A stretch of 64,000 nucleotides of DNA from Bacteroidota bacterium (GTDB lineage: Bacteria; Bacteroidota; Bacteroidia; Cytophagales; Cyclobacteriaceae): contig JAYVMP010000175.1 of NCBI GenBank assembly GCA_043758895.1, positions 2,764 through 66,763 of the forward strand, read 5' to 3'. This document shows, piece by piece, positions 16,964-17,207 of this stretch. Each line of letters starts with the position of its first letter. Positions within the stretch are counted from its first letter, which is position 1. Under the pieces are notes generated by a model, which saw only the letters and a program-made list of their open reading frames with translations, made no database searches and was not told where the DNA came from. Made by a program: the position numbers and the translations under genes.

Positions 16964-16991
16964 TTAAGTGTGATGTTTAAAGGGTTTAATG

Positions 16992-17082
16992 CAATGTCGT
17001 TTCCTTAAGTCCTTTTCTGATGACCTCACCTCGTTCCTCTCCAAAAGAGAGGATGTTAGTGGAGATTAAGGAAACGACATTG
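16992..17082. mobile_element. MITE-like element, copy 2 (91 bp)
   Basis: Perfect 17-bp TIR CAATGTCGTTTCCTTAA / TTAAGGAAACGACATTG; 10-bp duplication GGGTTTAATG at 16982-16991 and 17083-17092; same internal hairpin as copy 1. Confidence 0.85.
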
Positions 17083-17207
17083 GGGTTTAATGTTTAAAAG
17101 GTTTAAGTATGAATCACCTAATGCCCAATACCTTTTATGAAAGTGATGCGATTAACAATTAACGGATAACAATCAACAGGAATAACAACCACTAACAAAC
17201 AATAAAA

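Follow-up and report, generated by a model that had tools for sequence, protein, structure and literature searches.

The window, as we call the whole 64,000-nucleotide stretch analysed here, belongs to a draft genome of 287 contigs (3.29 Mb, 44% G+C) and contains a dcw cluster in which ftsA, ftsZ, murC, mraY and murD are all identified by profile matches. Two copies of a short hairpin element, both of them MITEs (miniature inverted-repeat transposable elements), lie in spacers of this cluster. The features on which the following account is based are:

10624-10713, forward strand: MITE copy 1, 90 bp, between mraY and murD, in a GATTTAG period-7 array, of another subfamily than copy 2
16196-16963, forward strand: upstream gene, ftsQ-like, 255 aa, placed by murC-X-ftsA-ftsZ synteny and a weak FtsQ_DivIB_C match
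16975-17115, forward strand: interrupted period-8 array, called by TRF on the reconstructed empty site
16982-16991, strand not applicable: left copy of the target-site duplication, 10 bp, GGGTTTAATG
16992-17082, forward strand: MITE copy 2, non-coding, 91 bp long, whose terminal inverted repeat CAATGTCGTTTCCTTAA is perfect over 17 bp
17035-17051, forward strand: apical hairpin CCTCTC-CAAAA-GAGAGG within the conserved core
17083-17092, strand not applicable: right copy of the target-site duplication, 10 bp, GGGTTTAATG
17180-17192, forward strand: conserved box AACAACCACTAAC, lying about 15 nt upstream of the ftsA start codon and shared by nearly all genus relatives
17208-18515, forward strand: ftsA (TIGR01174, E 3.2e-116)

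The open reading frame at 16196-16963 is called ftsQ only by its position and by a Pfam match to FtsQ_DivIB_C that stays below threshold (E 0.005). The spacer separating it from ftsA measures 244 bp, of which 101 bp are accounted for by copy 2 together with one copy of its duplication. Copy 2 starts 28 nt past the ftsQ stop codon and ends 125 nt ahead of the ftsA start, and its insertion left the box AACAACCACTAAC intact. The same box, in the form AACAACCACTAA(C), is found 10-25 nt ahead of the ftsA start in nearly all of the 27 genus genomes compared (loci L039-L064 and the window), while the remaining spacer is unalignable. Judged by this conservation, the box may be a leader or regulatory site of ftsA.

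Copy 2 begins with CAATGTCGTTTCCTTAA and ends with TTAAGGAAACGACATTG, its exact reverse complement, and the duplication GGGTTTAATG is exact on both sides. The 17-mer arm has four matches in the window, one for each arm of the two elements, against 0.19 matches expected from shuffled sequences. The length of 91 bp, the perfect 17-bp inverted repeat and the flanking 10-bp duplication, all of them claimed in the original prediction, can thus be read directly in the sequence. In silico removal of the element and one copy of the duplication gives the site GTTTAAAG GGTTTAAT GTTTAAAA GGTTTAAG, in which TRF recognizes a period-8 array of 3.8 copies; copy 2 indeed lies inside a periodic array, as had been proposed.

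Copy 1 is flanked by a different 10-bp duplication, ATTTTGGATT, at 10614-10623 and 10714-10723. A 12-bp duplication considered for this copy was rejected, one extra matching base on either side being a chance extension. The two copies share a 27-mer, CTCGTTCCTCTCCAAAAGAGAGGATGT, which occurs exactly twice in the window (at 10661 and 17030; none expected), and their overall identity is 90%, so that the idea of a common core within otherwise differing elements proved right. The nearest kin of copy 1 in the genome are the copies on contigs C69 and C89 (98.9% identical), and those of copy 2 the copies on C51 and C205 (96.7% identical). Since the two copies fall into different subfamilies, they stem from separate insertion events, which agrees with the earlier view of a MITE inserted twice independently in the dcw cluster with different duplications.

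The interior of the copy 1 subfamily (10644-10660) contains a 9-mer, GATCACCTC, which we take to be identical to the 3' end of 16S rRNA. The opposite strand of this region reads GAGGTGATCAAAAATGGCCTAA, where a Shine-Dalgarno-like run precedes ATG-GCC-TAA. The likeness to 16S rRNA is not conserved in the copy 2 subfamily; it is probably fortuitous and was treated as such.

Throughout the genome, about 65 copies of the element were found. Full-length copies number 57, are 85-93 bp long and are scattered over about 50 contigs; in addition there are five complete composites (214-222 bp), one copy carrying an IS110-family element and about seven fragments at contig ends. At least 83% identity to the two window copies is displayed by 44 of the 57 full-length copies, the other 13 constituting a second subfamily with the inverted repeat CAATGTCGTTAAGTTAAG. 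All family members share the same ends, and being too short for an open reading frame they have no coding capacity. An interior core, CCTCACC...CCTCTCC-loop-GAGAGG, is kept across subfamilies with differing inverted repeats and across several genera. With the ends taken in register, 39 of the 57 copies are flanked by a 10-bp duplication that has no more than one mismatch and in 24 of them is exact; its sequence differs at every locus, and all five composites have 10-bp duplications of their own. As many as 55 of the 57 copies lie outside open reading frames in a genome which is, by a simple ORF map, 90% coding. Size, terminal inverted repeats, locus-specific 10-bp duplications and dispersal together identify a MITE whose transposase staggers its target cuts by 10 bp. 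As a MITE it is ordinary, and our full-text literature search on MITEs in Bacteroidetes retrieved no account of this Cytophagales/Chitinophagales family.

Strong palindromicity, intergenic position and multiple copies are also traits of REPs, and the hairpin serves as a target of an IS110-family element just as REPs do in Pseudomonas and E. coli (PMC11208160, PMC12288879). The element might accordingly be no transposon at all: it might be a palindrome of the REP or PATE kind that owes its spread to a tyrosine or HUH enzyme (RAYT, IS200/IS605), or else a gene for a structured small RNA, or a terminator, that recombination has duplicated. We consider this barely conceivable. Locus-specific 10-bp direct duplications, present at 39 of the 57 copies and at the five composites, are the mark of staggered-cut DDE transposition and are not made by HUH or RAYT enzymes; moreover, the element has no Rfam match and is used in both orientations.

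Among known elements, the MITE resembles Correia/NEMIS of Neisseria and ERIC of enterobacteria, which are likewise intergenic inverted-repeat elements of about 100-150 bp. These are often co-transcribed with flanking genes and form long hairpins (PMC10969869, PMC2649163, PMC2229807). Correia elements differ in their TA duplication, IHF sites and promoter-forming ends, whereas the duplication of the MITE is 10 bp long and no promoter or terminator signal was found for it. Closer by host, being from the same phylum, are a Porphyromonas gingivalis MITE that carries a minisatellite (PMC4596501) and a Cardinium MITE (PMC9769881), which by their descriptions are also non-autonomous, intergenic inverted-repeat elements.

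Alignment of the 39 validated insertion sites revealed a target preference that is two-fold symmetric and centred on the duplication. T is preferred at position -5 (30 of 39 sites) and +2 (28 of 39), A at +7 (25 of 39) and +14 (32 of 39), and there are further preferences for R at 0 and Y at +9. The symmetrised consensus is nnnATTnAnnGATnnnnATCnnTnAATnnn, that is ATTnAnn|GATnnnnATC|nnTnAAT, or ATTnAnnGATnnnnATCnnTnAAT in short form. Each half-site consists of two (A/G)AT triplets spaced 7 bp apart.

This motif bears directly on the periodic arrays. The original prediction held that the element targets arrays, which led to the question whether other copies also lie in arrays of period 7 or 8. 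After in silico removal of the element and one duplication, six of the 39 sites, both dcw copies among them, were found in such arrays (TRF period 6-9, at least three copies); of 5,000 intergenic positions picked at random, 1.0% fell in them (odds ratio 18, P = 3e-6). The enrichment is therefore real, and autocorrelation at lags 7 and 14 is raised around insertion sites (0.343 versus 0.281). Both would fit a transposase that recognizes periodic arrays as such, through DNA shape or a bound protein, with the arrays acting as dedicated landing pads. This reading is nevertheless very improbable, as 33 of the 39 validated sites (85%) are outside arrays and flank periodicity beyond the 26-bp target footprint shows no excess (0.292 versus 0.277, P = 0.18). 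A third result comes from a weight matrix trained on the 33 non-array sites only, which reproduces the enrichment without having seen any array site: of all intergenic positions 0.74% lie in arrays, but among those whose score equals or exceeds that of the median real site the share is 6%, and within the top 0.1% by motif score it is 15%, the observed share of insertions being 15%. Arrays are enriched because they match the target motif; they are good motif matches and are not recognized as arrays. What stands of the earlier claim is the enrichment, while the proposed mechanism gives way to the motif. The case of this MITE illustrates how a short tandem array can turn into an insertion hotspot when its unit matches a phased target motif.

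Heptamer and octamer intergenic arrays are common in this genome; in the window they occur at 10576-10625, 13490-13522, 17151-17178, 24446-24521 and 49337-49373. In genus relatives the same spacer between ftsQ and ftsA contains arrays with other units in each species (GACTAAn five times in L040, CACTGAA eight times in L063; arrays are present in L052 and L056 too), which indicates that arrays turn over quickly. Comparable heptamer and octamer arrays have been described from certain Bacteroidetes, from cyanobacteria and from Beggiatoaceae (PMC4679880).

The same motif model can be applied to the presence of two copies in a single essential operon. The dcw spacers from mraZ to ftsZ comprise 1,304 intergenic bases, that is 0.39% of the intergenic total, and carry 2.4% of the target weight. 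Under a uniform intergenic model 0.22 dcw copies would be expected, and two or more would be mildly unusual (P = 0.02). If both dcw copies are left out when the matrix is trained, and 57 copies are counted, the motif model expects 1.4 copies in the dcw spacers and gives a probability of 0.41 for two or more. The double hit consequently needs no selection. The outcome is mostly a clean negative: two mobile hairpins in arrays of one essential operon are explained quantitatively by the target preference of a transposase.

Taken together, the 91 bp at 16992-17082 are very probably a non-autonomous MITE of the roughly 90-bp class, placed by a sequence-specific DDE-type transposase and recently expanded in this Cytophagales lineage. 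The transposase, probably of the IS4 family, would act in trans and bind the terminal inverted repeats of 17-18 bp. Cuts staggered by 10 bp in the target would then give rise to the duplication GGGTTTAATG. The site would be chosen by a palindromic AT-rich motif, with (A/G)AT triplets 7 bp apart in each half-site, which spacer arrays, including those of the dcw spacers, match unusually often. Before insertion, the empty allele would read GTTTAAAGGGTTTAATGTTTAAAAGG; with insertion the spacer between ftsQ and ftsA grew by 101 bp, and the ftsA box was spared. The insertion is, we infer, a tolerated and nearly neutral one.

A hairpin of this size could nonetheless matter once transcribed. The predicted RNA fold of copy 2 reaches -37.7 kcal/mol (z = -7.1) and that of the other strand -38.6 kcal/mol, z being about -7 on either strand. 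Spacers between ftsQ and ftsA are short in the relatives, which suggests that the two genes are co-transcribed, and if they are, copy 2 would place a stable hairpin in their mRNA. It is against this background that co-option of the MITE has to be weighed. The hairpin in the dcw mRNA might be cut by a double-strand-specific RNase, or it might block 3'-5' decay, either of which would uncouple ftsQ from the levels of ftsA-ftsZ transcripts. This is the idea of the original prediction, in which the hairpin sets RNA processing or stability points that tune dcw stoichiometry. A very stable fold predicted for either strand would suit such a role, as would the position of the element 28 nt past ftsQ in a spacer that in most relatives has only 26-115 bp, pointing to co-transcription. 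There is also precedent: transcripts that contain Correia elements are cut by RNase III at the inverted repeats, and transcript levels change where ERIC has inserted (PMC10969869, PMC2649163). The interior core, moreover, is kept across subfamilies and genera.

Several observations argue against co-option. Two dcw copies are already expected from target preference. In co-directional spacers, 16 copies are oriented with transcription and 21 against it, so that no bias is seen. Inspection of the ftsQ-ftsA spacer yielded neither a terminator (no stem with a U-tract) nor a promoter (no sigma-70-like site and no Bacteroidetes-type TTTG...TAnnTTTG site), on which grounds copy 2 was rejected as a terminator or promoter, and an Rfam search of window positions 10000-18000 returned no match. 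In an RNAalifold alignment of 29 diverse copies, changes on both sides of the stem are concentrated in the inverted repeats, where the subfamilies differ; covariation confined to these repeats is what is expected of transposase-binding ends. Finally, the insertion is missing in 26 of 26 relatives and so is not a conserved part of dcw regulation. Altogether, no sign of selection for an RNA role emerged; co-option, and with it the RNA-processing idea of the original prediction, is unsupported without being refuted, and we regard it as unlikely.

Conservation of the core CCTCACC...CCTCTCC-loop-GAGAGG could mean that it has some function beyond transposition. Carried to its end, this thought would make the core a functional RNA or protein-binding module used by the host, the dcw copies punctuation marks for processing or stability, and the heptamer arrays evolvable docking sites, a picture that we find improbable.

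Matches to the MITE were found in the genomes of only five out of 40 relatives (24 of the 40 belonging to the same genus), with at most five matches in any one of them. No match is present in the genome with the closest FtsA (96% protein identity), and none of the ftsQ-ftsA spacers of 26 genus relatives, which are 26-191 bp long and too diverged to align, contains the element. Two metagenome scans for the exact empty site gave 0 hits. When the joined flanks of another MITE copy were used as an empty-site probe, the nearest genome was about 76% identical in the coding flank and had the flanks on different contigs, not in synteny.

A wider scan with the exact pattern, covering one genome per species, detected the same 18-bp ends together with 10-bp duplications in metagenome-assembled genomes of Cytophagales, Cyclobacteriaceae, Chryseolinea, Bacteroidia and Chitinophagaceae. 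Another Cytophagales genome contains about 25 nearly identical copies. At three loci of a Chitinophagaceae genome (L007, L018 and L027), elements of 102 bp combine the same 18-bp ends and 10-bp duplications with an unrelated interior that is composed of a pair of hairpins, GTTGCGGGTG..CACCCGCAAC and GATGTTGGTG..CACCAACATC; longer variants of 150-370 bp are present in this genome as well. Identical ends around unrelated interiors in different orders imply a single transposase lineage that has spread horizontally and mobilised various passengers. We thus document a MITE family with one 18-bp end and, in some lineages, differing interiors. That this end is common to at least two Bacteroidota orders points to a horizontally moving transposase.

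As to the family of this transposase, there is a lead to IS4, the candidate source family of the MITE. In E. coli K-12 the IS4 ends are TAATGCCGATCAGTTAAGG and TAATGCCAGTCAGTTAAGC, and the duplication at that locus is 11 bp. The left end of IS4 and the end of the second MITE subfamily, CAATGTCGTTAAGTTAAGC, share 13 of 18 positions in register from the tip, with the common terminal signature AATG.CG.T.AGTTAAG, a likeness that is suggestive. The 10-bp duplication is similarly long and falls within the range of the IS4 family (about 9-13 bp); in the IS4 and IS231 groups, target duplications are 10-13 bp. IS4-family MITEs are exemplified by the MIC231 derivatives of IS231 in Bacillus cereus. Like the element described here, such MITEs are small non-coding derivatives moved in trans and show a palindromic target preference, although the IS231 consensus, GGG-N5-CCC, differs from the MITE target GATnnnnATC.

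Unlike IS4 itself, the MITE ends have not been met together with an IS4-type transposase, of which DDE_Tnp_1 with the YREK signature is the mark, either in this genome or in the other MITE-bearing genomes examined. Inverted pairs of ends 0.6-3.5 kb apart in this genome were represented only by the MITE with a nested IS110-family element and included no autonomous element, an absence which in a draft of 287 contigs is weak evidence. No parent transposase was recovered at the ends of 27 loci in other genomes, including one candidate there, nor in a search of a plasmid collection, and unpaired (solo) ends in five other genomes do not lie beside transposases. E. coli InsG has no match in this genome, and the IS4 N-terminal domain PF13006 occurs in 0 of 401 Cytophagales genomes. 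In this genome, as in three other MITE-bearing ones, the DDE_Tnp_1 genes are bordered by different ends. One of those in this genome belongs to an ISAs1-family insertion sequence (contig C16, 34471-35724) which encodes a 375-aa DDE_Tnp_1 protein and has 18-bp inverted repeats CAGGGAAATCGCTTTTAA with CAGGG ends, unrelated to those of the MITE. The second DDE_Tnp_1 element of the genome, which we take to be IS4-like, also has ends differing from the MITE ends.

The hairpin is itself a site of insertion. At C11:9170-10815 the apical hairpin of a MITE copy is interrupted by an element of about 1.55 kb, encoding a 409-aa protein with DEDD_Tnp_IS110 (PF01548) and Transposase_20 (PF02371) domains and a C-terminus that looks frameshifted. 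The junctions read TTCCT-CT-[element]-CT-CCAAAAG, with the dinucleotide CT on both sides. CT-flanked insertion is as described for IS110-family recombinases (PMC11208160). A non-coding derivative of about 130 bp has some 37 nt in common with the IS110 element at the left end and 12 nt at the right. It is inserted at the same CT and is commoner than the full element, occurring in five or more complete composites and in about seven fragments at contig ends. The complete composites are located at:

C28:6473-6692, MITE composite
C36:23179-23400, MITE composite
C165:29686-29906, MITE composite
C248:2001-2220, MITE composite
C219:26830-27043, MITE composite

An Rfam search for a bridge RNA in the IS110-bearing and composite copies gave no match. 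The position of the guest in the apical hairpin shows that the 27-mer core is at the same time the landing site of a second mobile element. Insertion at a fixed dinucleotide of a repeated palindrome is shared with IS621, ISPpu9 and ISPpu10 of the IS110/IS1111 group (PMC11208160, PMC12288879). In those known cases the host repeat is a REP palindrome, whereas here an RNA-guided recombinase has landed in a DDE-type MITE.
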